Origin: Candidatus Poribacteria bacterium
Lineage (GTDB): Bacteria > Poribacteria > WGA-4E > PCPOR2b
DNA: 64,000 bases
Direction of reading: 5' to 3'
NCBI GenBank assembly: GCA_965116925.1
Contig: OZ220744.1
Span: forward strand, 1,248,001-1,312,000
In this document: positions 29,554 through 50,074 of the stretch, one piece after another
Position numbering within the stretch: position 1 is the stretch's first letter
Layout of the letters: every line of letters starts with the position of its first letter
Notes under the pieces: generated by a model
What the model was told of the DNA's origin: nothing
The model's database searches: none
The model's input: the letters and a program-made list of their open reading frames with translations, nothing else
Program-made: the position numbers and the translations under genes

Positions 29554-29562
29554 CTGCCATTT

Positions 29563-30063
29563 TATGGTGAATACCAAAAACAGATAGGCACTTTCGCCCC
29601 TCGGTTTCGATCCTGATTTATCGGGGCCGGTAGGTGCGGTTTCCTAACCGCACCGGTTTGGAGTGTCTAGGGCGTGTTGACATTTTGAAGCTGCTCATTC
29701 GGCAGACGCTGTAATCATCAGGCAATCTGACAAATGTAGCGCAAACTGTTAGTTTGCAGACTCGGATACCAATCTAACAGATCGGGGGACAAAAGGAGAT
29801 TGTAGGTCGAGATTCATATCTCGACAAAATACACACCGTGGCGTACAACAAGCCGGGTTCATTGAGCAAAAACTATCGCATGATGTGCTACGGGGTGTCG
29901 ATTTTGGAAAATCGACCTACAGAAATCCGAAGCTATATCTAGTGTGTGAATAAAGGGGTGGGAGACCCAACCCCTACGAGGAGCTATGTGTCTGTATGCC
30001 CTCTTGATTATCTGATTGCGCTGAAATGTCAACAGAACCTAAGTAATTATAAAATCTACTATA
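29563..30063 (+). mobile_element. MITE family A interrupted by a family B element
   Basis: Removing 29670-30041 restores the 32-bp right end of family A. Confidence 0.8.
29670..30039 (+). mobile_element. MITE family B (370 bp)
   Basis: TIRs GGGCGTGTTGACATTT / AAATGTCAACAGAACC, flanked by TA; homologs at ~44560-44862 and 33846-33934 (minus strand). Confidence 0.8.
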
Positions 30064-30147
30064 ATTGCAAAGAGTTTGCCAACCCAAGCTGACCGCTATT
30101 ACCCCAAAGAATAATAAACCGATTTGACAACAGAGGAGGAATAACAG

Positions 30148-31176
30148 ATGCAACGGAGATATAATCTCGCCCATTTGATTTTAGCTAATGTGGTAGTCTT
30201 CGTACTGACACCGTTGATGATAGCCGTTGCGGCACAGGCACGGATTGTCTTCCAGTCTAATAGGGATGGGCATGTCCACCCCAGATTCGGTTGGACCTCT
30301 TTTGAAATCTATGTGATGGAGGTTGATGGGAACAATCAGCGTAGACTCACCAATAATCCCAATTGGGACACACAGCCCTCATGGTCTCCTGACGGTAAAC
30401 GGATTGCATTCAGGTCTGATAGGGATGGGAACGACGAAATCTACGTGATGGACGCCGATGGGGGCAATCCTCAAAACCTCACTAACAATCCCAATAGTGA
30501 TTCGTCTCCCTCATGGTCTCCTGACGGTGAACGGATTGTCTTCTCGTCTGATAGGGATGGGAATAGGGATGGGAACCGGGAAAACTATGAAATCTACGTG
30601 ATGGACAACGATGGGAACAATCAGCACAGACTCACTGACAACGGTTTTTTTGACACAGCTCCCTCATGCTCCCCTGACGGTAAACGGATTGCATTCAGGT
30701 CTCGGCGGGATGGGCACTTTATAGGCGAATTTGGACTCACTTATGAAATCTACGTGATGGACATCGATGGGGGGAATGAACAGAGGCTCACTGAAAATCG
30801 TAAGGCAGATTCGTCTCCCTCATGGTCTCCTGACGGTAAATGGATTGTCTTCTCGGCTGATAGGAAGGGAGACGGTGTAAACTATGAAATCTACGTGATG
30901 GACGCCGATGGGAACAACCAGCGTAGACTCACCAATAATCGCCATCATGACAAAACTCCCTCATGGTCGTCTGACGGCAAACGTATTGTCTTTTCGTCTT
31001 ATAGGGATGGGAACGCAGAAATCTACGTGATGGATGCCGATGGGGGGAATCAACAAAAACTTACCAATAATCCCCATCTTGACGGTGCTCCTGCGTGGTT
31101 TGGTCCTGCCTTTGCAGTTGCTCCCACAGGCAAAAAATTCACGACATGGGGACGGCTGAAACAGGTTGACCGATAA
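30148..31176 (+). CDS. Secreted TolB-like (PD40) propeller, paralog 2
   Basis: Six repeats; C-terminal VAPTGKKFTTWGRLK. Confidence 0.9.
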   Translation: MQRRYNLAHLILANVVVFVLTPLMIAVAAQARIVFQSNRDGHVHPRFGWTSFEIYVMEVDGNNQRRLTNNPNWDTQPSWSPDGKRIAFRSDRDGNDEIYVMDADGGNPQNLTNNPNSDSSPSWSPDGERIVFSSDRDGNRDGNRENYEIYVMDNDGNNQHRLTDNGFFDTAPSCSPDGKRIAFRSRRDGHFIGEFGLTYEIYVMDIDGGNEQRLTENRKADSSPSWSPDGKWIVFSADRKGDGVNYEIYVMDADGNNQRRLTNNRHHDKTPSWSSDGKRIVFSSYRDGNAEIYVMDADGGNQQKLTNNPHLDGAPAWFGPAFAVAPTGKKFTTWGRLKQVDR

Positions 31177-31192
31177 CTATTATTATTAAGAA

Positions 31193-31284
31193 GGCTCATG
31201 TAAAAAGAAAATGCAAAACATGAAGAGAAACCGAGTTTTTTCTTGAAAACTCGGTTTCTTTGCACTAAAATCTTAACATGAGCG
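31193..31284. mobile_element. MITE family C with GAAACCGAGTTTT..AAAACTCGGTTTC hairpin
   Basis: Ends GGCTCATGTAAAAAG / CTTAACATGAGCG. Confidence 0.8.
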
Positions 31285-31490
31285 ATGGTGAATACCAAAA
31301 ATAAATAGACACTTTCGTCCCTCGGTTTCGATCCCCCCGATAAATCGGGGTAAACTTATTATCGGGGCCGGTAGGTGCGGTTTCCAACCGCACCGAATAG
31401 ACGCAGCTAGAAACAGCGCCTACCAAACGGTCGTTTCGCTTTCCTAACCCCCCGGTTTGGAGTGTCTCATTAATTCTAAAATCTACCATA
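31285..31490 (+). mobile_element. MITE family A, expanded
   Basis: ATGGTGAATACC...TAAAATCTACCATA with extra hairpins. Confidence 0.75.
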
Positions 31491-31510
31491 ATTGTAAAGG
31501 AAGTGCCTAA

Positions 31511-32396
31511 GAACCTGTTTTAAAAAGATCCATTCTACTCAAGAGTTCATGTTTACGTTTATTCATTGGAACTGTAAATACCATTCCAATGAAAGGGCTA
31601 AACATGACCCAAACAACCTATCCCACAGATTTGACCGATGCCCAGTGGGACAACCTGTTACCCTATCTGCCAGAACCTTCACCGGTAGGCAGACCGCTCA
31701 AATGGGGGTTGCGCGCAATTATCAACGCTATTTTTTATGTAGTCAAATCCGGCTGTCAATGGCGAATGCTCCCCCATCAGATGCCACCATGGCAAACGGT
31801 CTATTCCCGTTTCAGAAAATGGAAAACTGATGGCACATGGATTCTGATTCATCAAGCACTTCATAACCAAATCCGTTGTGATATTGGCAAAGCCCCTTCA
31901 CCGACAGTCGCTATCATTGACAGCCAATCGGTCAAGACGACCGAACTGGCAGATAGTAGCGGCTTTGATGCACATAAGAAAGTCAAAGGGCGTAAACGTC
32001 ATGTAGTCACCGATACCATTGGCATCCCATTGGGAGTCAAGGTCACCGATGCCAATGTCAGTGATAATCAAGTCGCAATAGAGTTACTCAAAGAGGTCTT
32101 TAATTGGCACATAACGATTCAATTAGTCTGTGCTGATGCTGGTTATCGTGGAGAATTAGGTGACTGGTTATATATGGCGCATCAGTGTCGATTGGACATT
32201 GCGCCATCTGTTAAGCAATCAGGATTTACAGGGGTCCCATTGCGATGGATTGTGGAGCGCACCTTTTCTTGGTTCGCTTGGTTTCGCCGATTGACTGTGG
32301 ACTATGAACGGTCTGCTCAGACTGCTGAAGCTATGGTGTATATTGCTTCCATTTACTTGATGCAAAACCATATCAAATGAATTTTAAAACAGGCTC
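31511..32396 (+). mobile_element. IS5 family (IS1031 group) insertion sequence, 886 bp
   Basis: TIRs GAACCTGTTTTAAAA / TTTTAAAACAGGCTC; TAA duplication at 31508-31510 and 32397-32399. Confidence 0.93.
31604..32380 (+). CDS. IS5 family transposase
   Basis: YPTDLTDAQW, GCQWRMLP, IIDSQSVK, GRKRH, ADAGY and RWIVERTFSW motifs. Confidence 0.95.
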   Translation: MTQTTYPTDLTDAQWDNLLPYLPEPSPVGRPLKWGLRAIINAIFYVVKSGCQWRMLPHQMPPWQTVYSRFRKWKTDGTWILIHQALHNQIRCDIGKAPSPTVAIIDSQSVKTTELADSSGFDAHKKVKGRKRHVVTDTIGIPLGVKVTDANVSDNQVAIELLKEVFNWHITIQLVCADAGYRGELGDWLYMAHQCRLDIAPSVKQSGFTGVPLRWIVERTFSWFAWFRRLTVDYERSAQTAEAMVYIASIYLMQNHIK

Positions 32397-32465
32397 TAAA
32401 CAACCTGAACTCTATTACCCCTAAAAGAAAAATAAACCGATTTGAAAATAGAGGAGGAAAGACAG

Positions 32466-33536
32466 ATGCAACGGAGAGAGAATCTCACCCATTTGATTTT
32501 AACTAACGTAGTAGTCTTGGTACTAGCACCGCTGATGGGAGTCGTAGACGCACAGGCACGGATTGTCTTCCAGTCTAATAGGGATGGGCATGTCCACCCT
32601 AGACTCGGTTGGCCCACTTCTGAAATCTATGTGATGGACACCGATGGGAGCAATCCGCGTAGACTCACCAATCATCCCAATTTTGACACAGGTCCCTCAT
32701 GGTCCCCGGACGGCAAACGGATTGCCTTCTCGTCTGATAGGGATGAGCACGTTATAGAGAATGACCCCGGAGGACTACCCAATTATGAAATCTATGTGAT
32801 GGACGCCGATGGGGGCAATCCGCGAAACCTCACTAACAATCCCAATGATGATTCGGTTCCCTCATGGTCTCCGGATGGTAAACGGATTGCCTTCGTGTCT
32901 GATAGGGATGGGAATAGGGATGGGAACCGGAACAACTATGAAATCTACGTGATGGACACCGATGGGAACAATCAGCAAAGACTCACTGACAACGGTTTTT
33001 ATGACATCGGTCCCTCATGGTCTCCGGACGGTAAACGGATTGCATTCATGTCTCGGCGGGATGGGCACTTTATAGGCGAATTTGGACTCACTTATGAAAT
33101 CTACGTGATGGACGCCGATGGGGGGAATGAACAGAGACTCACCAATAATCGCAAGACTGATTCGTCTCCCTCATGGTCTCCTGACAGCAAACAGATTGTC
33201 TTCTCGTCTGATAGGAAGGGAGACGATGTAAACTTTGAAATCTACGTGATGGACGCCGATGGGGAGAATACGCGTAGACTCACCAATAATCGCGTATATG
33301 ATTCGGTTCCCTCATGGTCTCCGGATGGTAAACGGATTGTCTTCGTGTCTAATCCGGATGGGAAACATGAAAACTATGAAATCTACGTGATGGACAATGA
33401 TGGAGGAAATCAACAAAAACTCACTAATAATCCACACCGTGACAGTGCTCCTGAGTGGTTGAACTCTCCTTTTTCGGTTTCTCCCGCCGGCAAAAAATTT
33501 ACAATGTGGGGATGGCTCAAACAGCTCGACCGATAA
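32466..33536 (+). CDS. Secreted TolB-like (PD40) propeller, paralog 3
   Basis: Six repeats; C-terminal VSPAGKKFTMWGWLK; GAGGAGG upstream of ATG at 32466. Confidence 0.9.
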   Translation: MQRRENLTHLILTNVVVLVLAPLMGVVDAQARIVFQSNRDGHVHPRLGWPTSEIYVMDTDGSNPRRLTNHPNFDTGPSWSPDGKRIAFSSDRDEHVIENDPGGLPNYEIYVMDADGGNPRNLTNNPNDDSVPSWSPDGKRIAFVSDRDGNRDGNRNNYEIYVMDTDGNNQQRLTDNGFYDIGPSWSPDGKRIAFMSRRDGHFIGEFGLTYEIYVMDADGGNEQRLTNNRKTDSSPSWSPDSKQIVFSSDRKGDDVNFEIYVMDADGENTRRLTNNRVYDSVPSWSPDGKRIVFVSNPDGKHENYEIYVMDNDGGNQQKLTNNPHRDSAPEWLNSPFSVSPAGKKFTMWGWLKQLDR

Positions 33537-33565
33537 CTGCCACTCTTGAGAAGATTCATATAATA

Positions 33566-33790
33566 ACGCAAGTTGCTAGTTGATAAACCAAGCACTATAA
33601 ACCGAGTTTTTTCTTCAAAACTCGGTTTCTTTCTGATTCTAACCACTTGGGTTATGTTATAGAATCCTAGTAGGAGTGTAAATGTTGTCAATCGTGGCGC
33701 AGATTGCCTAATCTGCGATCTTTCGCATTACGTATTACGCTTCGTTTCACGATTTAGACAAACACCAGAACAACAACTAGCAACTTAGGT
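33566..33790. mobile_element. MITE family D with 7-bp target duplication
   Basis: Ends ACGCAAGTTGCTAGTTG / CAACTAGCAACTTAGGT; TATAATA on both sides. Confidence 0.82.
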
Positions 33791-33981
33791 TATAATAGGT
33801 CGAGTTTTCATACCTAACATCTATCGCCCCTCCCTGATCCCCTCTTGCAAGCTAACAGTTTGCGTTACATTTGTCAGACTGCCCGGTGATTACAACCTTT
33901 GCCGACTCAGCAACACCAAAATGCCAGCACGTCCTAGTTAAGCACAAATCTCCATTCCCCAATCATCCCTATATTTCCGCT

Positions 33982-34010
33982 TTGCACAACTGCACCATGT
34001 CGGTTATAAT
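33982..34010 (+). promoter_or_regulatory. Sigma70-type promoter
   Basis: TTGCAC-17 bp-TATAAT upstream of 34081. Confidence 0.6.
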
Positions 34011-34080
34011 AATCACTAGACAGAGGGCAAAAATTTCCGTTTGAGTTTCTGAGAGAACCCCCGACAGAAAGGACAAAGGG

Positions 34081-35157
34081 ATGAAAATCACAAAAATCGA
34101 GACAATTCAAATCGAAACACCACGTTATACCGGTCAGATATCGGGACATGTCATTGTCAAAGTGCATGTAGACGACGGACCAATAGGTCTTGGAGAAGCC
34201 TCGGATAGCAGAGCCGACGATCTCGGCGCGATAACCCGACGCTACAACGAGCTATTGGTGGGACGTGACGCCACCCGTATCACGGAGATTAACGAGTTCC
34301 TACGAACACAGGACTTCGGCAGCACTGTTACCAATCTACACCTCGCCTCCGCCATCGACTTGGCACTCTACGACCTCAACGGCAAGGTACAGGGAGTGCC
34401 CCTCTACCAAATGCTGGGCGGCAAAATGCGTGATAGCGTCTACTGTTGTTATCCAACCTGGGGCGTACAGGTGCGCGAGGACTTTGAGAGGACCGCAGGC
34501 TACCTGCAACGGTTGGTGGATTTGGGTCATCATCTCTTTCGTTACTACGTGTCGGGCGACAGCACATTGGATAACGACTTCTTGACGGAGATGAAGGCGA
34601 GATTTGGCGATCAGATTCGTCTCAAGCAACTCGATTTCTCCGGTCGCTTCAACGACTGGGAGACCGCTCTACGCTACGCCGATGTGCTTCGGCATCACGC
34701 ACCGTTCCACTTTGAGCAGCCCTCGCGCGACCTACGGGTATGCGCGGAATTTACCAAACGGATGGATTTGCCAGTAAGCCTTCACATCAACGATTTGGCA
34801 CTTGGCTACGAAGCAGCCGAGCGCGGTGCCTGCACGGTCTTCAATGTGGCGTGTGTGTCAGGAGGACCCACCCATATCCGCCGCCTGTTTGCCTTAGCAG
34901 AATCGGCGGGGCTCAGGTGTCTGATTGGTACAGATCAGGAATCGACGCTTGGTACATCCGCACAGGTCCAACTAGGCGTTTCGATGCCAAATCTCACCTT
35001 CCCCTGTGATCCGATGGGCCCCGTACTTTACACGGCATCACCGGCGAAGGAGCGCGTCCGAGCGGAAGGCAGCCACCTCTATCCGCCCGAAGGACCGGGG
35101 CTTGGCGTTGAGTTAGATCCGGACAAACTGAGCGAATTGACCGTCGCATCGGCATAA
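34081..35157 (+). CDS. Enolase-superfamily acid-sugar dehydratase (galactarate dehydratase II-like)
   Basis: AIDLALYDL.GK, FRYY (RxY), DFS, FEQP, SLH, DP.GP and PGLGVELD motifs. Confidence 0.8.
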   Translation: MKITKIETIQIETPRYTGQISGHVIVKVHVDDGPIGLGEASDSRADDLGAITRRYNELLVGRDATRITEINEFLRTQDFGSTVTNLHLASAIDLALYDLNGKVQGVPLYQMLGGKMRDSVYCCYPTWGVQVREDFERTAGYLQRLVDLGHHLFRYYVSGDSTLDNDFLTEMKARFGDQIRLKQLDFSGRFNDWETALRYADVLRHHAPFHFEQPSRDLRVCAEFTKRMDLPVSLHINDLALGYEAAERGACTVFNVACVSGGPTHIRRLFALAESAGLRCLIGTDQESTLGTSAQVQLGVSMPNLTFPCDPMGPVLYTASPAKERVRAEGSHLYPPEGPGLGVELDPDKLSELTVASA

Positions 35158-35182
35158 GGCGAGCAGCGAGGAGGATATCCCA

Positions 35183-36280
35183 ATGAGGACAGGACAAGTT
35201 GCTATTTTTACGGAGCCACAAGCACCAATGGAGTTCCGTGAGTATCCCGTACCATCAACAGAGCCAGACGATCTCTTGGTCAAAATGAGCATGGCGAATA
35301 TCTGCGGCTCAGACCTACACTTTTGGCGGGGGCACGGACCTAAAATTCCGAGTGGTGTTCCTCAAGTGTTGGGGCATGAGATGATCGGCACCATCGAAGA
35401 ACTTGGCAAAAATATCCAGACCGATAGCATGGGACAGCCGTTGGAAGAGGGAGATCGAATCACCTACTCCTATTTCAAGCCGTGCAACTGTTGTTGGATG
35501 TGCCTCAATGGTAAGCCGGGTTGTCCGAACCGCTATCGAGATTGGCTCGGTGTGCCGAGCGATCAATCTCCGCATTTTCACGGGGCTTACGGCGAATACT
35601 ACTACATGAAACCGGGACACTGGATCTTCAAAGTTCCCGATGAACTACCTGACGCGCTCGTTTCGCCAGTCAACTGTGCGTTGTCGGAGGTCATCTACGG
35701 GCTTAACCAGATCGGTATTACACTTGGCGATACGGTTGTGATTCAAGGTGCTGGCGGACTTGGGCTTTATGCGACGGCTGTGGCAAAGGAGATGGGGGCT
35801 GGACAAATCATCGTCTTGGATCGGTTGCCGGCACGGCTGGAGCTCGCACGCGAGTTTGGGGCCGACCATCTCATCAACGTCGATGAACTTTCGGTGAAAG
35901 ACCGTGTTGAATATGTGCTTGACCACACGCGAGGAGTCGGGGCAGATCTAGTCGCTGAGTTTGTCGGTTCGCCGCGTGTCCTATCCGAAGGGGTTGAGAT
36001 GCTCCGTTGGGGCGGCCGTTACCTCTGGATCGGGAACATCAATCTCGGTATGCCCACCGAAATTGATCCGGGCAGTATTGTCCGATGCAGCAGAACGATC
36101 CGAGGGGTGATAGTATATGAAGGTTGGGTTATTGCACGGGCACTGGATTTGCTGCTACGGACACAGGAAAAATATCCGTTCCACAAGATTATGTCCCACA
36201 CCTTCCCCTTCGATCAGATTAACGAAGCGTTTGAATTCGCCGAGGAGGGCGGGGCAATTCGTGTTGGGTTGACGTTCTAA
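35183..36280 (+). CDS. Zinc-dependent alcohol dehydrogenase
   Basis: ICGSDLH, LGHEM.G, C..C..C and GAGGLG motifs. Confidence 0.92.
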   Translation: MRTGQVAIFTEPQAPMEFREYPVPSTEPDDLLVKMSMANICGSDLHFWRGHGPKIPSGVPQVLGHEMIGTIEELGKNIQTDSMGQPLEEGDRITYSYFKPCNCCWMCLNGKPGCPNRYRDWLGVPSDQSPHFHGAYGEYYYMKPGHWIFKVPDELPDALVSPVNCALSEVIYGLNQIGITLGDTVVIQGAGGLGLYATAVAKEMGAGQIIVLDRLPARLELAREFGADHLINVDELSVKDRVEYVLDHTRGVGADLVAEFVGSPRVLSEGVEMLRWGGRYLWIGNINLGMPTEIDPGSIVRCSRTIRGVIVYEGWVIARALDLLLRTQEKYPFHKIMSHTFPFDQINEAFEFAEEGGAIRVGLTF

Positions 36281-36295
36281 CATGAAGGTTTAAAT

Positions 36296-37690
36296 ATGAT
36301 CTACCATCATCTGTTTGACCAAATTAAAGAGAGGCGAACCGTCCGCGCCGGACTGATTGGCAGCGGACACTACGGCACAGCGGTTATCACCCAAGCGCGT
36401 TATATACCCCTTCTGGAGATTCCGATTATTGCGGATGTCGATCCCCAAGCCGCACGGCTCGCCTATCATCGTGCTGGCATCACCGACGATGAAATTGTTG
36501 TGTGCGACAGTCGTGCTGCTGCAATGCGCGCCATGGAAGCCGGGAAATTTGTGATCACGGAAGATCCGATACTCCTGATGGATATACCGATAGATGTTGT
36601 TGTCGAATCCACAGGTGTTCCAGAGGCCGGTGCCCGCCACGCCTATAAAGCCATCCAGCACGGAAAGCATGTCGCCATGATTAACAAGGAGACAGATGCG
36701 GTTATCGGACCAATCCTCAAGCATTTGGCAGACACCGCAGGGGTTGTTTATACCCCTGTGGATGGCGATCAACATGGGTTGTTAATCGGCTTGGTTCTGT
36801 GGGCACGGAGTCTGGGGTTAGAGGTGCTTTCCGGTGGCAAGGCGCGGAACAATGAATGTATCTATGACTCGGAAGCGAAGACAGTATCCTGTGCGCGTTC
36901 TACGGTCTCCATAAATGAATCAGAGGCATGGGCACTCAATCGCATTCCTGATGGAGAGGCTAACCGATACATCTCTGCCCGCCGTGAAATTCTAGCCGCC
37001 CTTCCCAAAACCTCTAACTCAGATCTGGGAGAAATGACAGTAGCAGCAAATGCCACAGGACTGATGCCCGATATTCCTGAATTGCACCTGCCCGTTGTTC
37101 GGACCTCTGAGATTCCTGAGGTGCTCTGTCCGGTAGAGGAAGGCGGCATTCTAGAAACAAAAGGTGCGATCGAAATCGTCACCTGCTTGAGGGGTGCTGA
37201 CGACGCTGGCTTGGGCGGTGGCGTATTCATTGTGGTTTCGTGCGAAAACGAATACTCCCGCACGATTCTCACCACCAAAGGGCTAATACCTAACAGTCGT
37301 GGCTCGACGGCGGTAATTTATCGTCCTTACCACCTCTGTGGTGTGGAAACCCCAATCTCCATCCTCTCCGCAGTGCTCCTGAATGTTCCCACCGGTGCCG
37401 CTACAGTCAAGCCACATGTAGATCTCGTCGCAAAATCAAACTGTGAACTAAAGACAGGTACAATCTTAGGCGGCGGCCATAGCAACGATATTGACGCAGC
37501 TATCCTCCCCGCGTCTCCCATTGCCAAAGGCAACCCTCTGCCGCTTTATCTCTTGACTAGTAATCGTTTGTCCAGAGATGTGGCAGCGGAAACACTAATC
37601 ACGCAAGAGATGGTTGACCCACCAGCAGATTCGCTGCTTTGGTCACTCAGACAGCAACAGGACGCACATTTCGGACTCAAAGAAGCCTGA
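36296..37690 (+). CDS. Homoserine-dehydrogenase-like oxidoreductase with C-terminal SAF domain
   Basis: GLIGSGHYG, VVESTG.PE.GA, NKETD..GP.L, GDQ and YRPYHL.G.E motifs. Confidence 0.8.
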   Translation: MIYHHLFDQIKERRTVRAGLIGSGHYGTAVITQARYIPLLEIPIIADVDPQAARLAYHRAGITDDEIVVCDSRAAAMRAMEAGKFVITEDPILLMDIPIDVVVESTGVPEAGARHAYKAIQHGKHVAMINKETDAVIGPILKHLADTAGVVYTPVDGDQHGLLIGLVLWARSLGLEVLSGGKARNNECIYDSEAKTVSCARSTVSINESEAWALNRIPDGEANRYISARREILAALPKTSNSDLGEMTVAANATGLMPDIPELHLPVVRTSEIPEVLCPVEEGGILETKGAIEIVTCLRGADDAGLGGGVFIVVSCENEYSRTILTTKGLIPNSRGSTAVIYRPYHLCGVETPISILSAVLLNVPTGAATVKPHVDLVAKSNCELKTGTILGGGHSNDIDAAILPASPIAKGNPLPLYLLTSNRLSRDVAAETLITQEMVDPPADSLLWSLRQQQDAHFGLKEA

Positions 37691-37714
37691 GGGGGTGGAG
37701 CTCCAACCTGAAAT

Positions 37715-39529: not shown

Positions 39530-39934
39530 ACAGTTACAGAAGATGTCTATAACGCTTCACATTTAACACTCTCTACGGAACAATCCTTGATTTGCACAAT
39601 TCCTGCAGCTCCAACTAACCCTTGATTTCAATTCAACTTGGTGTTACACTGAAACGCATGTACGATTGAAAGTTTCAATTTGAATATAGATTAGTAGATT
39701 TCGCGGATTTGGGAGTTACACACTTCAGTAGGGAACAACGATCGTTGTTCCCTACGGGATTCTTGGTGGTGCTCCTGCTGTAGTTGCCCGATTTATCGGG
39801 CGTTGGAAATTGTGTCCTATTGCTTTGAATCCTGATTTATCGGGGCAATAATCCGCGCAATCCGTGTCATCAGTTTAATCCGCGATTCAGACAATAATTA
39901 TCCATATCCCTCATATACAGAGGTGTAACCATCT

Positions 39935-41051: not shown

Positions 41052-41738
41052 ATGAAAAAAGTGGCAGCAACTGTTACGACTCTGCTGTTGATAACCGGTA
41101 TAGCGAAAGCGCATGCCCAACTCTACGAACATCCTTTCAACCTCCATCAATTAAAGATGGGACAGGTAAGCGTTGCGGTCGGAGCAGAGTTTGTTAACGA
41201 ACGGATCGCCGCCGTTGGCAATCTTGAATACGGTTTGTTACCGACTATTGAAGGGTATGTGAAAGCGGGACAGCTTTATTTCGATGACGAACACTCAACC
41301 ACGCAGTCACCAATTTCGTTCTTTTATTCTGGGCTTAGTTCGATCCAACCGCTAATCAGAAGCGATTGGGAGTGTTTGGCGAGTGCGAGTTTCTTCGGAA
41401 GTTTTGCAGATGAGAGAACAGGTGCCGAGAACAGTACGCTAGGGTTTTCCATTGGATTCGGATTCTTCCATAAAATCGTCGGAGATTCGGTGCTGTCCGT
41501 TGCACCGTACGCCCTCGCATCTTATGACATGAGTTGGTGGACTCTGGGGGAGGAAACCTCACGCGGCGGTGCCTTCTCTGGACAGATCGGCTTAGAGGTT
41601 GACCTGTCACCAAATATGAGTTTGCTGGGAAGCATTATCTATCCCCTTAAAGCAGATAGAGGAACGTTATATGGCATTTTTTTCTCCTTTCATCCCAGCG
41701 TCACGCGCAGTGATATAGCCCAAGCTGCTAGGTATTGA
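41052..41738 (+). CDS. Putative outer-membrane beta-barrel protein
   Basis: Signal peptide ending AHA; alternating Gly/aromatic beta-strands. Confidence 0.55.
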   Translation: MKKVAATVTTLLLITGIAKAHAQLYEHPFNLHQLKMGQVSVAVGAEFVNERIAAVGNLEYGLLPTIEGYVKAGQLYFDDEHSTTQSPISFFYSGLSSIQPLIRSDWECLASASFFGSFADERTGAENSTLGFSIGFGFFHKIVGDSVLSVAPYALASYDMSWWTLGEETSRGGAFSGQIGLEVDLSPNMSLLGSIIYPLKADRGTLYGIFFSFHPSVTRSDIAQAARY

Positions 41739-41777
41739 GTTCCATCGATTTTCTGTTAAAATTGATGGGGCCTATCT

Positions 41778-41895
41778 TTCGCTCCAGAGGAGCGATATGT
41801 TTATAGAGTGTTGATGCTCTAATGCCTGCACTCCAGAGGAGTGCAATATGTATAGAAATACCGAAACCATGCATCTCAAAGCCCCAAAGGGGCAA
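41778..41895 (+). repeat. Repeat family E, three spaced hairpin units
   Basis: CGCTCCAGAGGAGCG, GCACTCCAGAGGAGTGC and GCCCCAAAGGGGC. Confidence 0.75.
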
Positions 41896-41950
41896 TAAGT
41901 GGCAGCTTGTGCTATCATAATTCATCGACATTACGCAAAATGAGGATTAA

Positions 41951-42943
41951 ATGAAAAAAACAGTAACAGTCATCTGCCATCACGAGCACGGCATTCCCGA
42001 AGAAGTCGCCCAAGTTGAAGCGTGGGACACCCCCGTCATCGCTCCCAACCAAGTTCTAGTTGAGATGAAAGCTTCACCGATTAATCCCGCCGACATCAAC
42101 AGACTTGAGGGGAAGTATCCGATTCGCTCCCCGCTACCGGCAATTGCGGGAAACGAAGGCGTTGGTATCATTGCAAAAACAGGCAGTGCCGTTTCCAATC
42201 TGCGTGTCGGTCAACCCGTGATCTCGCTAGACCGAGTGGGTCACTGGTGCGATGCGTATGCCTCAGACGCCCAAAGCCTGATTCCCCTGCCAGATGATAT
42301 TCCGCTGGAGCAAGCAGCAATGCTATCGGTCAACCCGCCAACCGCTTGGCGGATGCTTGAAGGGTTCGTTGACCTCAAACCCGGCGATTGGGTGATTCAG
42401 AACGCCGCCAACTCCGGCGTCGGTCGGGCTGTGATTCAGATTGCACGGCTCCGCGGCTTGAGAACCATTAATGTCGTGCGCCGAAAAGATCTGATCCCCG
42501 AACTTGAGGCGGAAGGTGCCGATATCGTCGTCACCGATGAGATTCCACTATCGAAACAAATTCGGGACTTGACCGGTAACGCTGATGTGCCACTTGGATT
42601 GAACGCTGTCGGTGGGGAGAGTGCACGGGAGATAGCCAAATCACTCAGCGATCACGGCACATTGGTCACCTACGGTGCGATGGGACTCCAGCCACTGCAA
42701 ATGAGCAATAGCCTGTTGATCTTCAAAGACCTCTGTTTCCGTGGCTTTTGGATTAATGCTTGGTATAAACGCGCTGATACTAAGGACATTCATGATATGT
42801 TCAATCAATTAATCCCTCTCATAACGTCAGGAAAATTGACAGTGCCGGTTGAGAAGGTCTATCCACTCACCGATGCCAAGACGGCTCTAGCCCATGCGTG
42901 TCAGAACGCTCGGAAAGGAAAAATCCTGTTCGTGATGAATTGA
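41951..42943 (+). CDS. 2-enoyl thioester reductase (MECR-like MDR)
   Basis: SPINPADIN, GNEGVG, VNPPTAWRML, QNAANSGVG and VTYGAM motifs. Confidence 0.9.
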   Translation: MKKTVTVICHHEHGIPEEVAQVEAWDTPVIAPNQVLVEMKASPINPADINRLEGKYPIRSPLPAIAGNEGVGIIAKTGSAVSNLRVGQPVISLDRVGHWCDAYASDAQSLIPLPDDIPLEQAAMLSVNPPTAWRMLEGFVDLKPGDWVIQNAANSGVGRAVIQIARLRGLRTINVVRRKDLIPELEAEGADIVVTDEIPLSKQIRDLTGNADVPLGLNAVGGESAREIAKSLSDHGTLVTYGAMGLQPLQMSNSLLIFKDLCFRGFWINAWYKRADTKDIHDMFNQLIPLITSGKLTVPVEKVYPLTDAKTALAHACQNARKGKILFVMN

Positions 42944-43130
42944 GACGTGATGCGTGAAATGAAGTTGTTGTATCTGTCCCTTTGATATTACCTTTACGAC
43001 TTACGCAGCTAGCTCATAAGTCCCTCTGATTTTTCCAAGTCTCCCTGACAAGGGGGATTTAGGGGGTTAAAAAATCGAGTGCCTTGGGTAGATTATCTCC
43101 TTAACCTGTGGGAGGATTGTGCCGTAAGAA

Positions 43131-44441
43131 ATGGAAGTATCCCATAGTCGCCTTGTTAGTAAATCGCCGATTTTCTACGGCTGGATTATCATGTTGATCG
43201 GGACGCTGGGAATGATTATGAGCAGTCCCGGTCAGACCTATGTGGTATCGATCTTTATTGAGTCCTTCATCACGGACCTAGGGATTAGTCGGTCGCTTGT
43301 CAGTACGCTCTACACACTGGGCACACTTGTGGGAAGTTTCGTCTTGCCGATTGTGGGATACCAAATCGATCGGCATGGTGCCCGGTTAATAGTGGTGCTG
43401 ATTACCGCGCTTTTCGGATTTGCTTGCGTCTACATGGGCTACGTGCAGAATGCCTTCATGCTCGGTTTAGGGTTCATCGCACTCCGCATGCTCGGTCAAG
43501 GAAGTTTGGGATTGGTCTGCACGAACATTATTAATCAGTGGTGGGTGCGTCGGCGGGGCATGGTGATGGGGATTTCCGGTATGGCAGGCTCCCTTATCAG
43601 TTTGGGCGGTTTTCCAAATCTTGTCAACTGGTTAATTCCTACCTACGGTTGGAGGTCCACTTATATATTCCTTGGGATAATACTTACGTTTGTGATGGCG
43701 CCGGTGGCGTTTATATTTTTTCGTAACCATCCGGAGGATTATGGACTCCAACCAGATGGAGGGGAATCAAGTACATTCAGGTTTCGCAAAAGAAAACAGG
43801 GGACTACGAGATTAACGGAGGTGAACTGGACGCTAGGAGAAGCGATGTGCACAGCCGCTTTCTGGATTTTGGTGGCAAGTCTTTCTGCGATCAGTATGCT
43901 GTCCACCGGTCTATTTTTCCATATGGTCAGCATCTTTACCGATAACGGATTGACACGCAATCTCGCCGCAGCAGTTTTTGTGCCTATCGCTGTGACCACT
44001 GCGGTCGTTAACTGGGGCAGCGGTCTTCTCGTAGATCGAGTCCCGGTGCGTATATTGCTGGCTACTGGTCTGTTCTTCCAAGCACTGTCGCTGTTGATGG
44101 CATGCTCGCTTGCCGACATTACCCTTGCATTGCTGTTTGGCGTTGTCCTCGGAATTTCCAGCGGGCTCATTCGTATCTTGGGCAGCGTAGTCTGGGCGAT
44201 GTACTTCGGACGGCGCCACCTAGGCAGTATCACAGGACTCACCTCAATGGTTACGATTATCGGCTCTGCGCTGGGACCGATGCCCTTGGGAATTGGTCGA
44301 GACCTGTTGGGAAGTTATAATCTTGCGTTAATAATTTCGGCGGCCATTCCACTTCTGCTAGGGATTCTTGCCCTCTTTATTGCTGATCCCGTCCGTTTGA
44401 CGGGGCAGCTGCAAAAGCACAAACAAGAAACAGACGAATAA
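43131..44441 (+). CDS. MFS transporter
   Basis: About 12 TM segments; G..IDRHG.R motif A; FGRRHLG. Confidence 0.9.
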   Translation: MEVSHSRLVSKSPIFYGWIIMLIGTLGMIMSSPGQTYVVSIFIESFITDLGISRSLVSTLYTLGTLVGSFVLPIVGYQIDRHGARLIVVLITALFGFACVYMGYVQNAFMLGLGFIALRMLGQGSLGLVCTNIINQWWVRRRGMVMGISGMAGSLISLGGFPNLVNWLIPTYGWRSTYIFLGIILTFVMAPVAFIFFRNHPEDYGLQPDGGESSTFRFRKRKQGTTRLTEVNWTLGEAMCTAAFWILVASLSAISMLSTGLFFHMVSIFTDNGLTRNLAAAVFVPIAVTTAVVNWGSGLLVDRVPVRILLATGLFFQALSLLMACSLADITLALLFGVVLGISSGLIRILGSVVWAMYFGRRHLGSITGLTSMVTIIGSALGPMPLGIGRDLLGSYNLALIISAAIPLLLGILALFIADPVRLTGQLQKHKQETDE

Positions 44442-44559
44442 ACGAGCCGAACCCCTTTGTTTTCTAGTAAGTCGATTTTCCAAGAGCACCATTCTAGTTT
44501 GCTTTTCGCTCCAGAGGAGCGATATGTCTATAGAACGGCGATATGTCCAATACCTGCGC

Positions 44560-44862
44560 TCCAAAGGAGCGCACAAACGCATGGTTCTTCGTAGGGATTG
44601 GGTCTCCCAACCCGTTGTTCACCCGTCATAGACGATTTCGGACTTCTGTAGGTCGATTTTCCAAAATCGACACTCCCTAGCACATAGCGCAATGTTCCAG
44701 TATTTTGTCGAGATATGAATCTTGACCTACAATCTCCTTTTGTACCACGATCTGTTAGATTGTGATCTTAGTCTGCAAACTAACAGTTTGCGCTACTTAT
44801 GGCAGATTGCCTGGTGATTACAGCGTTTACCGAATGAGCAGCTTCAAAATGTCAACACGCCC
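44560..44862 (-). mobile_element. MITE family B copy (one TIR retained)
   Basis: Reverse-complement homology to 29670-~30005; ends AAATGTCAACACGCCC then TA. Confidence 0.75.
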
Positions 44863-44931
44863 TAACAACTTACGTTATAATATGTGGATTTTCCAAGACG
44901 TAATATTTTCAATATAAAGGGAGAAAGCTAT

Positions 44932-45906
44932 ATGCCGACAGAAACCTCAACCCGAGCCAAAATTGTCGTTCCCGGCGACAACCCACCACAGATACAAGGT
45001 TCCCCACATCTAGAGCGACTCGAGCCCTACGGCGATGTCACTTTGTACACAGATCGTCCAGAGTCACTTGAGGAACAGATTGACCGCACAAAAGACGCAG
45101 ATGTTATCATGAACACACGCGGCATTGTGACGTGGTACGCCGAAGCCTTACACCAAGTCCCGAAACTACGGCTAATTGCGACCTGCTCAATCGGGACAGA
45201 CAATATCGATCTGGACACAGCAAGGGAGCTTGGTGTTGTAATTTGCAATCAACCCGGCAGGACAGCCCCCGTTGTCGCTGAACACGGGTTTGGATTGATG
45301 TTCGCTGCAGCCAAACGTGCTGCCTTCATGACGGCAGCCGTGAAGGAAGGCGGTTGGCCCCGAATGGACAACATTTATCTGCAAGACAAAACACTGGGGA
45401 TTGTCGGCACAGGGCACATCGGGGCAGAGATGGCAAGACTTGGTCGCGCCATCGGGATGAACGTAATCGCATGGACTTTCAATCCTTCACCCGAACGGGC
45501 AGCGCAACTCGGAGTCCAGTACGTCGAATTGGATGAACTATTGCAAACGTCGGATGTTGTCAGTCTCCATGTCAAGCTGACCGATGATAGCCGCGAAATG
45601 ATTGGGCAACGGGAGCTCGAACTGATGAAGTCCAACGCTCTGTTGATTAATGTTGCACGTGGTGATATAGTGAATACAGACGCACTCATCGAAGTACTAA
45701 ATGCTGGGCATCTCGGCGGTGCTGGAATTGATGTCTACGATGAGGAACCACCGCCTGCCAACCATCCGCTCCTCGCTTGTGAACAGGTTATTCTGTCGCC
45801 CCATTGTGCGGATATGACACCAGAGGGCGTTAATCTGCTAAATGAGGGAATTGTGGATAACGTCATCGCCTTCCTGGAAGGCAAACCGCAAAATGTAGTG
45901 GTATAA
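44932..45906 (+). CDS. D-isomer-specific 2-hydroxyacid dehydrogenase
   Basis: GTDNID, VAEH, GTGHIG, INVARG, DV..EP and SPH motifs. Confidence 0.92.
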   Translation: MPTETSTRAKIVVPGDNPPQIQGSPHLERLEPYGDVTLYTDRPESLEEQIDRTKDADVIMNTRGIVTWYAEALHQVPKLRLIATCSIGTDNIDLDTARELGVVICNQPGRTAPVVAEHGFGLMFAAAKRAAFMTAAVKEGGWPRMDNIYLQDKTLGIVGTGHIGAEMARLGRAIGMNVIAWTFNPSPERAAQLGVQYVELDELLQTSDVVSLHVKLTDDSREMIGQRELELMKSNALLINVARGDIVNTDALIEVLNAGHLGGAGIDVYDEEPPPANHPLLACEQVILSPHCADMTPEGVNLLNEGIVDNVIAFLEGKPQNVVV

Positions 45907-45921
45907 TGCGTAAAATGTAGT

Positions 45922-46126
45922 TATAGTGAATTAGAGAAATAAGTAGACATTTACCAATAACTTCAACCTACTCGAAATTGTCAAAGTCCCCCTGAACCCC
46001 TCTGATAAGAGGGGAAAGACAAGGGAGAAGATCCTCTCTTATCTTCTCCCCTTGTCAGGGGAGTTGGGGGATTTAGGGGGTTAGCTGTACGTTGGGAGTG
46101 TCTAAATAATGCTAAAATCTACTATA
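45922..46126 (+). mobile_element. MITE family A shell with a different cargo (CCCCCT..GGGGGATTTAGGGGG)
   Basis: TATAGTGAATT...TAAAATCTACTATA; cargo related to 43037-43070. Confidence 0.75.
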
Positions 46127-46176
46127 CTTGACACTGGTCAAACTCCACTAATTTATGCCAATGGGGTAGAGGTATC

Positions 46177-46986
46177 ATGATGACAACTTCTGAACGGGAA
46201 GAACTCCGACGGTTAATGCAGGCATCGGGCACACTGTATGCCGACGAGATGCCACTCGCTCATACAAGCTGGAATGAATTGGATCTGTGGCGATTTAGGG
46301 ATTTCTACAGGCAGCAATACGATCAGGAAATTGACCAACTTAACACTCTCACTGAACGCAGTCTATCAAATCTAAAACTCCTTAAATCAGGACATCTGAC
46401 ATTAGCAGGACTTCTCCTTTTTGGCAAAGAACCGCAACAGATTCGACCACAATTCATGGTCAAATCGGTCGCATTTATCGGCAACCGCTTGGAGGGAACA
46501 GAATATCTGGACAGCGAGGACATCGGATCAACCTTAGCCGAACAGTTCAAAGGGACGATGGGATTTCTCAAACGTAATCTACGAAAGCAACAAAACGGTC
46601 AGAACTTTAATTTTCCCGGTATAATGGAAATTCCCCAAATTGCCTTGGAAGAAGCAGTCGTCAACGCGCTTGTTCACCGGGACTACCTGATCAGCAGTAG
46701 CGTCCGCGTCTTTATCTTCGATAATCGTATCGAAATCATCAGCCCCGGCAAGCTGCCTAATACAGCGACGGTCGAGTCGATCCGAGCGGGAATACAGATT
46801 GTCAGGAATCCTGTCTTAATCTCATTTGTCCCGAAGCTAGGAATTCCTTATCGCGGTTTAGGTTCTGGAGTTCCCCGCATGATCGAGGAATGTCGCAAAG
46901 CCAATCTCCCTGAACCTCAATTCATTGAAGATAAGGCTGCTGAAACATTTACAGTTGTCTTTGATAGACCATCAAACACCCATTAA
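46177..46986 (+). CDS. RecG-C-like ATPase-fold (HATPase_c_4) protein lacking the usual N-terminal AlbA_2 domain
   Basis: LTLAGLLLFG, EAVVNALVHRDY, IEIISPG.LP, RNP and G.G.G motifs. Confidence 0.75.
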   Translation: MMTTSEREELRRLMQASGTLYADEMPLAHTSWNELDLWRFRDFYRQQYDQEIDQLNTLTERSLSNLKLLKSGHLTLAGLLLFGKEPQQIRPQFMVKSVAFIGNRLEGTEYLDSEDIGSTLAEQFKGTMGFLKRNLRKQQNGQNFNFPGIMEIPQIALEEAVVNALVHRDYLISSSVRVFIFDNRIEIISPGKLPNTATVESIRAGIQIVRNPVLISFVPKLGIPYRGLGSGVPRMIEECRKANLPEPQFIEDKAAETFTVVFDRPSNTH

Positions 46987-47043
46987 GAAGCAATTTTTGT
47001 ATTCCTAATAGAACTTACACACATGGTCAGAAAATAGTTATCA

Positions 47044-47200
47044 TCCTAAGTTGCTAGTTATTGGAAATCCATCTGTAGGTCGAGATTCACATCTCGACAC
47101 CCCACCGTCGATTTTGGAAAATCGACCTACAGAAATGATACAATTTGCACAGAGATTAGGGGCTATTGGTTTGAATATGCCGGCTACTAGCAACTTGCGT
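47044..47200. mobile_element. MITE family D, opposite orientation, with GTAGGTCGA hairpin pair
   Basis: Ends CCTAAGTTGCTAG / CTAGCAACTTGCGT. Confidence 0.7.
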
Positions 47201-47289
47201 TGTAATACTCAACGGTTTGCCACAAGAGCTAATCAAGACAACCGACTCTTTAATCTTAACGATAGCTGAAAGGAGTTCTAAAGAGGATT

Positions 47290-47907
47290 ATGAGACCAAA
47301 ATTGCCACTCTTTTCCCTATCTGTTGTCAAGATAGCAACTTGGGTTCTTTTGCTTACACTCTCCAATCCCGCTTTCTGTGAGAGACGTGGAATTATATTT
47401 GCCTTTAATATAGGCTGGCCCTCAAGCGGCCTGATACTGGGTTACGGCTTGACAGACAAACTCGCGATTGAAGCCCATCTTGCTGCAAACGCTTGTCCCA
47501 CCGCGTCTTGGGGTACAACGGTAGGCATTTCTATGAAATATCGACCCATCCCTGATAATGAAAAGTTCTATCTCTTGGCGGGTTGGTCAAAAATTGCGGA
47601 TGAATCACGGTCGCCCCACTTCCGCCCTAGAACAGACGACCAAGGGAATAAATATGTAACAGCAGGTTACAGTGCTGGATTGAAGTTCGGACTCGGACAC
47701 GAGTTTAGTATTAATCAAGAAAGAGGTCTCGCGGAAAATGTCTTCTGGGCGGTTGAAGGTGGGCTTTATCTGGCGCTGAAAGATGAGAACTGGCGAATTA
47801 CACTCAAGGACGGAGAGCAGGTAATCTCCGAGGAGGAAGAGGACTTTTTTTGGCGTAAATCCCCGTTTTTTCACTCGGGGCCGATCTTCTATTCCAAACG
47901 AGAGTGA
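47290..47907 (+). CDS. Putative secreted/outer-membrane beta-barrel protein
   Basis: Signal-peptide-like N-terminus; amphipathic beta-strands. Confidence 0.5.
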   Translation: MRPKLPLFSLSVVKIATWVLLLTLSNPAFCERRGIIFAFNIGWPSSGLILGYGLTDKLAIEAHLAANACPTASWGTTVGISMKYRPIPDNEKFYLLAGWSKIADESRSPHFRPRTDDQGNKYVTAGYSAGLKFGLGHEFSINQERGLAENVFWAVEGGLYLALKDENWRITLKDGEQVISEEEEDFFWRKSPFFHSGPIFYSKRE

Positions 47908-48087
47908 TTTGTAAAATCTTGCGGGTGAAACCCCACACCGGCGGATATGTCGCCAATCGAGTCGAACGGACTGCGGCACTGACTCCTGCCCATAAAAAAA
48001 CATAACCTTTCGTGTGTGAAAGATTATGTTTTAGGCCTTACACAACTGATGTGCATAAGTTCTACCTAATTATTGAAGTACCGGAAA

Positions 48088-49932
48088 ATGAACCAACAGA
48101 TTAGCGATAAACTCTCAAACCTACCTGCCGGTCCCGGTGTCTATCTGATGAAAGACGCAGCGGAAAAAGTGCTATACGTCGGCAAGGCAACCTCCTTGCG
48201 CCAGCGGGTCAGATCCTACTTCCAAAATGCTGCCACCCCACACGCCTTGACCAAACCAATGCTGCGCTATGTCGCCGATATCGACGCCATCCTTACTGCA
48301 AGCGATGTTGAGGCGTTAATCCTTGAAAATAACCTCATTAAGGAGTATCAGCCACGCTACAACATTAGACTCAAGGACGACAAACGCTATCCGTATCTAA
48401 AAGTGACCGTCAATGAACCGTTTCCGGGGCTTTACATTACGCGTCAAAAAGAGAATGATGGCGCAAAATATTTTGGTCCCTTTGTACATACCCGTGCGAC
48501 GCGGCAGACCATCAAGCAGCTGACAAAGGTCTTCCCTATCCGCACCTGTAATTTGGAATTGAAAGCATCAGGAAATCCACACCGTGTGTGCTTAGATTAT
48601 CACATTCAACGTTGTCCCGGTCCCTGTGCAGATCTCACCACCGTTGAGGATTACGATCAGATTGTGAAGAGTGTCCGCCGGTTTTTGAGCGGGGACACAG
48701 CGACGGTTCTAAAAGATCTGAAAGAAAAAATGCAGTCCGCTGCAACCGCACTCGATTTTGAAAGTGCCGCGAAATATCGAGACCAGATCGAGAATGTCAA
48801 GGACGCGATTGCCAAGCAGAACCTCGACAACGCGTCCGCAGAAAATGAGGACGTGATTGGTGTAGCGCGAGCGGGAGATGAAGCGTGTGCACAGGTGTTG
48901 ATGATACGCGATGGGAAGCTGATCGAACGCGAGCACTACTTCCTGAAGAATTCGTCTGACTCCATCATTGAGACGCTGACTGCATTTGTTCAGCAGTACT
49001 ATCAAGATGCCTCATTCATTCCGAAAACCATTTTGTTGCCTGACGACATCGAGATGCCGGGAGCCATCCAGCGTTGGCTATCCGAGAAGCGTGGTAGTCA
49101 GGTCACATTGTACATCCCACAGCGGGGGCGTAAACGTCAGTTAGTAGAGATGGCAGCGAAGAATGCGAGTATCATCCTTGAGCAGAAGGAACAGAACGTC
49201 GTCTTCAAAGCCGATGACAACCCCGCCCTGATTGAGTTACAAGAGTTGTTGAACCTACCTCACCCGCCAGCCCGTATTGAGGGGTTTGATATCTCCAATC
49301 TGGGAGATCGATTCCCTGTCGCCTCGATGGTGGTGATGGAAGATGCACAACCCGCGAAATCTGAGTATCGACGCTTTAAGATTCGTACCGTTGAAGGGCA
49401 GAATGACTATGCAATGATGCAGGAGGTCGTCACCCGTCGATTTCGTCGTGCTATTGACGAAAATCGTTTCCCAGATCTGATATTAATCGATGGAGGTAAG
49501 GGACAGTTAAGTGCCGCATACGAAATACTGCAAACACTGGATTTAAGCCATCTTCCAATTATTGGGCTTGCCAAGCGGTTCGAGCATATCTTTCTTCCCG
49601 GCAGATCTGATCCAATCGTGCTCCGGCGCGACAATCCGACACTTCACCTAATCCAGCGGTTGCGCGACGAAGCGCATAGATTCGCTATCACGTATCACCG
49701 AAAACGCCGCAGCCGCGCACTCAGTCACTCAATCCTTGATGAAATTCCGAATGTTGGTGTCAAGCGAAAACAGGCACTGCTTCAACATTTTGGGGCAATT
49801 GAAAAGATTCGTCAGGCCAGCCTTGATGAGCTGCTATCTGTGAAAGGGATACCGCACGGTGTTGCGGCAACTATTCACAAACACTTGAGGGAACAAGAAG
49901 GACAAACTATAGTGAATTCAAAAAATAAATGA
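48088..49932 (+). CDS. uvrC: Excinuclease ABC subunit C
   Basis: GIY-YIG domain (PGVYLM, YVGKA), FE.AA..RD, IEGFDIS, LIDGGKGQL, RDEAHRFA and HhH motifs. Confidence 0.98.
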   Translation: MNQQISDKLSNLPAGPGVYLMKDAAEKVLYVGKATSLRQRVRSYFQNAATPHALTKPMLRYVADIDAILTASDVEALILENNLIKEYQPRYNIRLKDDKRYPYLKVTVNEPFPGLYITRQKENDGAKYFGPFVHTRATRQTIKQLTKVFPIRTCNLELKASGNPHRVCLDYHIQRCPGPCADLTTVEDYDQIVKSVRRFLSGDTATVLKDLKEKMQSAATALDFESAAKYRDQIENVKDAIAKQNLDNASAENEDVIGVARAGDEACAQVLMIRDGKLIEREHYFLKNSSDSIIETLTAFVQQYYQDASFIPKTILLPDDIEMPGAIQRWLSEKRGSQVTLYIPQRGRKRQLVEMAAKNASIILEQKEQNVVFKADDNPALIELQELLNLPHPPARIEGFDISNLGDRFPVASMVVMEDAQPAKSEYRRFKIRTVEGQNDYAMMQEVVTRRFRRAIDENRFPDLILIDGGKGQLSAAYEILQTLDLSHLPIIGLAKRFEHIFLPGRSDPIVLRRDNPTLHLIQRLRDEAHRFAITYHRKRRSRALSHSILDEIPNVGVKRKQALLQHFGAIEKIRQASLDELLSVKGIPHGVAATIHKHLREQEGQTIVNSKNK

Positions 49933-50074
49933 ACACTTTCGCTCCTCGGTTTCGATCTCCCCGATAAATCCCCGATGCTCGGGGTAAACTTGTAAACTTA
50001 TTATCGGGACTTGGTAGGCGCTGTTTGTAACTGCGCCGATTTGGAGTGTCTCATTAATTCTAAAATCTACTATA
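49908..50074 (+). mobile_element. MITE family A overlapping the uvrC 3' end
   Basis: TATAGTGAATTCAAAAAATAAATGA contains the uvrC stop codon. Confidence 0.85.

Follow-up and report, generated by a model that had tools for sequence, protein, structure and literature searches.

Non-coding DNA units of only 20–33 nucleotides (nt) are scattered through the genome of a Candidatus Poribacteria bacterium, and comparison with empty homologous sites indicates that most of them entered their targets without duplicating or removing a base. We describe them from a 64,000-nt stretch of that genome (contig OZ220744.1, positions 1,248,001 to 1,312,000; hereafter the window, to which coordinates refer unless a genome or locus is named) and from the genome as a whole, searched as a single 6.47-Mb contig (G000). 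Each unit consists of a tail of 5–18 nt, a 6-bp hairpin with a variable loop and one purine, is mostly 20–27 nt long, and always has its right end at the final purine. Joined end to end, a unit is predicted from compensatory base changes to form a closed DNA dumbbell, and we tentatively propose that such units move as single-stranded DNA (ssDNA). A preliminary description of the window had singled out a 23-nt palindrome as a very small mobile unit, and its interpretation as a whole is partly supported: filled and empty sites bear out a very small mobile unit without target duplication, and the palindrome is one subfamily of a larger, many-tailed family rather than a stand-alone element.

Clean insertion of the units

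The comparison of filled with empty sites that the preliminary description had called for covered this genome and 219 loci of its relatives. It returned 894 strand matches, 244 of them with an empty homologue, and in 131 of the 244 the insertion was clean, with no loss of target bases. Once restricted to tails of 5–19 nt that lack an inner hairpin, the set comprised 114 matches, corresponding to 73 tail-by-context events and 43 tails. A target duplication of 3 or 4 bases was found in 0–1 of 62 events; a single G is common to both junctions in 43 of the 62, and the register of insertion is fixed by sites with A or C ahead of the cut. The expectation of small deletions instead of duplications thus holds for the missing duplications but not for deletion as a rule, since most family members lose nothing. 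The commonest tail was found in nine target contexts.

Units within genes lengthen the encoded proteins by 9 or 11 codons, in frame, and are a source of small in-frame insertions in sponge-symbiont genes. A 33-nt unit in a single-copy gene is present in this genome (G000) and in G019 and G002 and absent from G005 and G018, and a 27-nt unit in a gene family is likewise present or absent, both being in frame. At two of the four coding-region sites, no empty homologue was found among five relatives. A locus of G005 (L289) carries a different hairpin repeat, also in frame, at the codon position where paralogues hold the 27-nt unit.

Predicted dumbbell fold

When the last base of a unit is joined to its first, the hairpin helix continues over the joint. 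The second base pair across the joint is of Watson–Crick type in 30 of 40 tails, as against 13.3 by permutation (0/20,000), and is made up of T-A (12), G-C (10) and C-G (8) pairs. The first pair forms in 30 of 43 tails with 25.9 expected (p = 0.05) and is mostly T-A, with three swaps to C-G; pairing in slid registers gives 0–13 of 32. Circular folding under DNA parameters, by a program unable to form 2-base loops, beats tail shuffles in 32 of the 43 units. In the shortest units, 8 base pairs are capped by two 2-base loops, and the 5-nt tails begin with TTTA, CCTG or CTTG; passages of PMC9975016 list TTTA and CCTG as type II DNA tetraloops. Tails of 8 nt often contain a GNA triloop. On the strength of these compensatory changes, a unit joined end to end is predicted to be a closed DNA dumbbell; tail pairing would be meaningful only when stacked on the hairpin, in a closed or a nicked dumbbell, because two base pairs would not stand alone.

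Target word and tip swapping

The common target is the word C-M-N-G directly 5′ of the cut. Of 29 target clusters, 21 have C at position −4, 25 have A or C at −3 and 22 have G at −1; compared with the local background, p is below 1e-4 for each of the three. Position −2 is free, and the word is constant across tails. Units do nest in their own hairpin, as had been proposed, although the 29–40 distinct target clusters exclude an exclusive targeting of their own palindrome. Targeting of hairpin tips was considered as well and rejected: none of seven position pairs covaries across the cut, and hairpin geometry is not required.

One repetitive extragenic palindrome (REP) exists in three states, with a plain tip (76 copies), with a unit inserted (4 copies) and with the tail of the unit as its new tip (4 copies). 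In the last state, bases have been lost without microhomology and a perfect hairpin has been restored, which would be the product expected from a four-way junction resolved crosswise; ordinary deletion could also yield it. A further tail recurs as the tip of an abundant REP (about 59 copies). Tails matching the tips of other hairpins account for 2 of 14 tried, and those of 10–11 nt have no such source.

Nested units and their carrier

The three sites of the preliminary description were confirmed letter for letter, at (i) 29601–29626, (ii) 31322–31367 and (iii) 49946–50009, and all occupy one common position within a repeat family, family A, as it had stated. Family A is a TA-ended miniature inverted-repeat transposable element (MITE), because all 18 relatives that retain both anchors lack the whole 164-nt copy at site (iii), which has TA at either end; in G005 the interval is shorter by 164 nt. 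This copy, with its nest (49908..50074, forward strand), sits in the 3′ end of a gene (48073–49932) that is probably UvrC-like, judging by its length and an N-terminal GIY-YIG match.

Stage (i) (29601..29626, forward strand) is a 26-nt unit of 11-nt tail, hairpin and G, inserted cleanly in the MITE. Its empty counterparts include a family A MITE without any unit (stage 0; 28174..28275, forward strand), another at 23606 and dozens across the genome. The nesting reported in three stages is therefore real but shows four, site (i) being already filled. At stage (ii) (31322..31367, forward strand), the 26-nt unit of stage (i) is interrupted by a second, oppositely oriented unit (31335..31357, reverse strand), which is the palindrome of the preliminary description. 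Its 20-nt core (31335–31354) comprises a TTTA-loop tail, hairpin and G, and is followed by three added bases ending in AG that replace four target bases. Stage (iii) (49946..50009, forward strand) is a triple nest made up of the host unit, the second unit (49959–49969 and 49992–49999) and a third unit of 22 nt (49970..49991, reverse strand) that replaces four stem bases of the second. The third-level type has 7 copies and 47 empty sites, and its loops vary from genome to genome.

Triple nests number seven copies in four genomes, this one and three others, and a contig from an independent study spans 48072–50058 with 56 differing letters and one gap (match summary). For both reasons, the triple nest is not an assembly artefact, the outcome that the preliminary description had named as a threat to its reading.

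The spread of the stages, which had been credited to self-insertion, is largely passive, family A being a MITE that arrived whole: the stage (ii) form recurs within the flanks of this MITE at other loci of G005, and most nest copies were multiplied by the MITE. A single event cannot account for all triple nests unless conversion also took place: they are found with either second-level variant, and in two hosts whose loops differ.

Read on its minus strand, the unit of the preliminary description is a TTTA-loop 20-mer. Its exact pattern, counted genome-wide as had been suggested, occurs in only three copies, and in nine with variants. It does occur outside family A: across the genus it has at least five host settings, and in this genome one of the nine copies lies outside family A. 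Other insertions of it lie in units bearing four further tail types, in a long tail's loop and in a 9-base tandem repeat. In five settings of the TTTA-loop unit, the right junction follows CG and the left junction swaps 3–4 target bases for 2–4 bases ending in AG. This 3–4-base loss is peculiar to the subfamily; a CTTG-loop unit shows an AG-plus-replacement junction too, and T-closed 20-mers mostly enter cleanly. The 20-nt TTTA-loop form, clean and without AG, was seen once, in G007. A 23-nt dumbbell was dropped as the fold of this unit, which can begin with T, A or C and of which the clean 20-nt form exists. We propose that the TTTA-loop 20-mer entered other units repeatedly, replacing 3–4 target bases, and that the MITE then multiplied the nests.

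The related palindromes that had been listed elsewhere in the window all exist (26804–26834, 39787 and 39830), although one of them belongs to a GTAG-tagged REP and not to a micro-element. That REP (39780..39801, forward strand) has the same hairpin top and is a host and possible relative of the units. In a REP pair, a 23-nt unit with an 8-nt tail and GNA loop (26792..26834, forward strand) is interrupted by a 20-nt CCTG-loop unit (26804..26823, forward strand), a clean insertion in the other unit's stem, with three empty sites and eight contexts. The 26-nt unit at 39820..39845 (forward strand) has the commonest tail type, the one known from nine target contexts, and no empty site was found for that copy.

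Elsewhere in the window, 28606–33536 holds three adjacent genes for TolB-like beta-propellers with a common C-terminal motif, between which lie repeat clusters and a transposase-like open reading frame (ORF; 31589–32380). In the genome, a Y1 transposase gene is broken by a family A MITE (G000 6296300; L001), and another Y1 gene lies between cas-like genes (L004; names by eye from the translation).

Abundance and range

The pyrimidine–hairpin–purine core has 137 loci in this genome, compared with 0–2 in five shuffled genomes, and a further 96 copies of the hairpin lie within the GTAG-tagged REP. Units are mainly extragenic, with 38 of 282 strand matches falling in ORFs of at least 200 amino acids (aa), which make up 80% of the genome. 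A strict 17-nt pattern was found in all 20 genus genomes, in 6–191 copies each and with no control match, in three of five other genomes of the family and in none of 16 of the order; units are present in three genera besides the genus. A scan of species genomes gave at least 121 stretches, and of the 80 listed, 17 are from Poribacteria. The others among the matches listed come from Bacteroidota, Ignavibacteria, Desulfobacterota, Patescibacteria and further groups and are mostly tail-less palindromes, several of those in Desulfobacterota looking tailed. One match lies within the apparent V1 region of a 16S rRNA gene in an Omnitrophota genome (L048:1501). Searches of the open-access literature for Poribacteria together with palindromic insertions found nothing, and those for the palindrome words of the unit returned only unrelated papers.

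Proposed mechanism and a candidate nuclease

We propose that the 20–33-nt units move as ssDNA. In the folded unit, as the covariation shows, the last base of the tail pairs with the final purine and its first 1–3 bases with the preceding ones, giving a dumbbell with one fixed nick. The filled and empty sites show that the unit enters a target strand 3′ of C-M-N-G, with no base duplicated or lost. Such a unit may be excised and either sealed into a closed dumbbell or processed with its nick, and would be joined to a nick in the target. A unit inside a host stem would create a four-way junction; resolved back or across, this could swap tips and so give rise to new tails. The cutter may be a small stand-alone GIY-YIG nuclease resembling SLX1 and UPF0213, with a host ligase sealing the joint. 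We put this explanation as a whole at slightly below even probability, and name the GIY-YIG nuclease as the most likely cutter a little more tentatively still. That closed ssDNA dumbbells of 20–33 bases are the smallest known replicators, moved in and out through one-strand exchange by SLX1-like GIY-YIG enzymes, is a bolder proposition that we consider rather unlikely.

The candidate is a stand-alone, single-domain protein of 83–91 aa whose gene is flanked by the hairpin; its nearest solved structures are UPF0213 and SLX1, and against NCBIfam it gave nothing above the cut-off. Close homologues were found in 7 of 41 relatives, every one unit-bearing; within the genus, the gene is intact in four and broken in two of 19 genomes, and it also occurs in G022. 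Across metagenomes, the hairpin is present at 28 of 80 small-GIY-YIG loci, versus 2.2 in shuffles, and in 25 cases within 150 nt of the gene. These hairpins are closed by T-A (25) or C-G (7), as in the units, and three of the loci hold the palindrome of the preliminary description letter for letter. The gene lies amid tRNA-Pro copies in which a near-identical hairpin takes the place of the anticodon arm. The open-access literature on GIY-YIG enzymes with short palindromes yielded only unrelated reviews.

Several loci have the GIY-YIG gene within such a hairpin-armed tRNA-Pro array (L344–L347, from G003, G017, G009 and G018; L374; L376). The array of G003 comprises 11 tandem copies, and the matching G000 locus (about 5148470–5149130) has only a plain tRNA. 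In a Caldithrix sequence (L086:1500–1851), a hairpin precedes a 99-aa GIY-YIG gene by 35 nt amid SRM-like repeats. At G000 794057, 794418 and 4180264, a tail-less 16-nt hairpin replaces 7 bases of another repeat's hairpin, much like the anticodon-arm replacements.

Two further ideas were examined and set aside. Rolling-circle multimers would appear as head-to-tail tandems, and none was found. A replication-strand bias was left unused: the G-rich strand carries 39 of the 60 strict copies (p = 0.03), but the cumulative skew has no clear origin or terminus.

A number of observations weigh against the dumbbell explanation or its candidate enzyme. No circle, nick or movement was observed. In 113 of the 244 matches with an empty homologue, the best-scoring alignment has some target loss; many of these, not all of them checked, are misfits, and they also include the subfamily of the preliminary description, whose AG-plus-deletion junction the explanation does not account for. 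Empty sites are visible mostly in repeats, so the target set is biased, and because tails, like contexts, share common descent, p-values are overstated. The third pair across the joint shows no excess over chance, and 11 of 43 tails fold no better than shuffles. Neither this genome nor 13 of the 19 genus genomes, the unit-rich G011 among them, has the GIY-YIG gene, and many of the 80 metagenome loci are near-duplicates. Where the gene occurs in the genus, the hairpin flanking it is tail-less and deviates in one base pair, and the gene's known junctions, in the anticodon arms of the tRNA copies, show no C-M-N-G by eye. GIY-YIG enzymes are not known to form a covalent intermediate, and joining would therefore require host enzymes.

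Alternative explanations

Enzymes of the HUH Y1 class, either a RAYT or the TnpA of IS200/IS605, could instead move the units by peel-and-paste, binding the hairpin, making a tyrosine-linked cut, closing a circle and inserting it 3′ of a tetranucleotide. Duplication-free insertion 3′ of a four-base word is the signature of IS200/IS605, as set out in parts of PMC3479197 and PMC6006769. The last two bases of the tail pair around the nick exactly like G4 and A3 of the TnpA-REP guide. Three REPs with the same hairpin top as the units flank a 145-aa RAYT (L286 and L287, in G007 and G005), close homologues of which occur in 9 of 19 genus genomes. However, the GTAG/GTGG tag, sought 0–2 nt ahead of the stem, was found in none of 43 units, the REP closes with G-C and the units with a pyrimidine–purine pair, and the target word does not follow the tail as a guide would require, the first base of the target equalling that of the unit in only 10 of 62 events. 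The RAYT of G005 and G007 has no close homologue in this genome or outside the genus, although units occur in three other genera; Y1_Tnp generally fails to track the units (36 of 41 genomes) and is found in none of 99 neighbouring ORFs in other phyla. Overall, we regard the Y1 route as unlikely. The preliminary description had pointed to an HUH or IS110-type enzyme: the RAYT with the same REP hairpin keeps the former in play as this rival, although IS91-type Y2 transposases were found in none of 41 genomes (with a control that was likewise silent), and the IS110 transposase PF02371 was found in none of the 20 genus genomes (its control matched in 6 of 14). Within the genus, neither the GIY-YIG nor the RAYT gene is correlated in its presence with unit counts, and the 99 ORFs adjoining hairpins in other phyla include one GIY-YIG and no transposase.

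Such a lack of any element-specific gene tracking the units would be accounted for if host enzymes did the joining, topoisomerase I cutting unwound target DNA and passing its tyrosine-linked end to the 3′-OH of a folded DNA, a ligase sealing the product and hairpin-binding proteins merely supplying the pieces. According to PMC3467081, bacterial topoisomerase I favours a cytosine four bases upstream of the cut, and C stands at −4 in 21 of the 29 clusters. This route leaves unexplained G at −1, A or C at −3, the fixed hairpin sequence and the faithful tail subfamilies; most targets of the TTTA-loop subfamily lack C at −4, and a literature search for type IA topoisomerases with illegitimate recombination found nothing. 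We consider it quite improbable. Copying through RNA, by reverse transcription of a small structured transcript, is said to have been proposed for the small dispersed repeats (SDRs) of Nostoc, which reportedly have a similarly small size, conserved fold and habit of nesting, and the one precise and one imprecise end of the TTTA-loop subfamily would suit it. The units, however, carry loops favoured in DNA (2-base loops, GNA triloops and a GC-GAA-GC mini-hairpin in the 33-nt unit) and have neither a duplication nor poly-A, and this origin appears very unlikely; for the tetraloops, stability in DNA is described in PMC9975016. Least probable of all, to our minds, is that there are no mobile units, the nests having been built between repeats by slippage, template switching and gene conversion. 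Site (iii) does contain an 8-base tandem, recombinant left/right combinations exist, slippage between 11-base repeats can yield shortened nests, and conversion may lie behind the identical junctions of hosts that differ in their tails. Yet inserts and most targets have no repeat in common, one tail occurs in up to nine contexts, and conversion, even if it carries nests further, could not have produced the initial insertions; the reading without mobile units is largely refuted by the single-copy gene in which the 33-nt unit is present or absent in frame.

Among further observations on these enzymes and their repeats, this genome has kept many REPs of the 39780 family without a close homologue of the 145-aa RAYT. 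A RAYT-like gene at G000 6301768–6302249, which the Pfam search did not pick up, carries REP insertions and a stop codon in frame. At L206 (G007) and at G000 4797884 and 4931359, IS200/IS605-type elements have the hairpin close to their right end, where the TnpB guide RNA is expected to be encoded.

With its fixed nick, dumbbell fold, target word and two candidate enzymes, the proposed ssDNA dumbbell is open to assay with oligonucleotides. The mobility of DNA of 20–30 bases has been an open question since the SDR elements were described. If the GIY-YIG route is true, it would amount to transposition without a transposase, a scarless insertion of short DNA into single strands, and one-strand exchange by such enzymes would explain the hairpin-plugged tRNA copies and perhaps the SDRs of Nostoc.

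Comparison with known systems

Short hairpins outside genes, insertion without duplication and a four-base 5′ word are shared by the units with the REP, RAYT and TnpA-REP systems and the ends of IS200/IS605, as described in parts of PMC3479197, PMC6006769 and PMC3116915, and one REP family here has the same hairpin top. Unlike REPs, the units lack GTAG, occur singly rather than as doublets and have their right end fixed at the foot of the hairpin; unlike in IS200/IS605, tail ends vary and targets do not (by eye). IS91/ISCR elements and Helitrons are likewise said to nick after a target word, to have a hairpin end and to make no duplication, although the units are ten to a hundred times smaller and show no head-to-tail tandems. 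The terminal inverted repeats and target duplication of a DDE-type MITE are not found in the unit, whereas its host, family A, is a MITE.

A closer counterpart is the Ssn system, in which the 94-aa GIY-YIG nuclease SsnA binds an ssDNA hairpin and cuts a few bases upstream, and Ssn genes are flanked by cognate NTS/SRM hairpins that also spread through genomes; the parts of PMC11893778 that report this demonstrate cleavage rather than movement of the repeats. Both systems place a small single-domain GIY-YIG gene beside a cognate hairpin spread through genomes and involve ssDNA. The published SRM pattern, however, is matched by none of the 43 units, and the candidate enzyme is just 33% like an Ssn-type neighbour.

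The nearest parallel is to the SDRs. Elhai et al. (2008, Genome Res 18:1484, as cited in PMC3116915 and PMC2884548) reportedly described SDR1–8 of Nostoc punctiforme as dispersed units of 21–27 nt found in heptamer repeats, in mini-transposons and in their own copies; their structure is said to have been deduced from compensatory changes, and no mover to have been identified. So described, they resemble the present units in size, in compensatory changes and in insertion into tandem repeats, mini-transposons and themselves. They belong to another phylum, and the comparison is with their reported features; for the present units, in contrast, we propose movement as DNA, closure into a dumbbell, C-M-N-G as the target and a swapping of tips. 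By the tests made, the family is neither REP, SRM nor MITE and works like the SDRs reported from Nostoc; what it adds is dumbbell closure, a target word, the tip swap and a link to a named nuclease family, the mechanism being a proposal.

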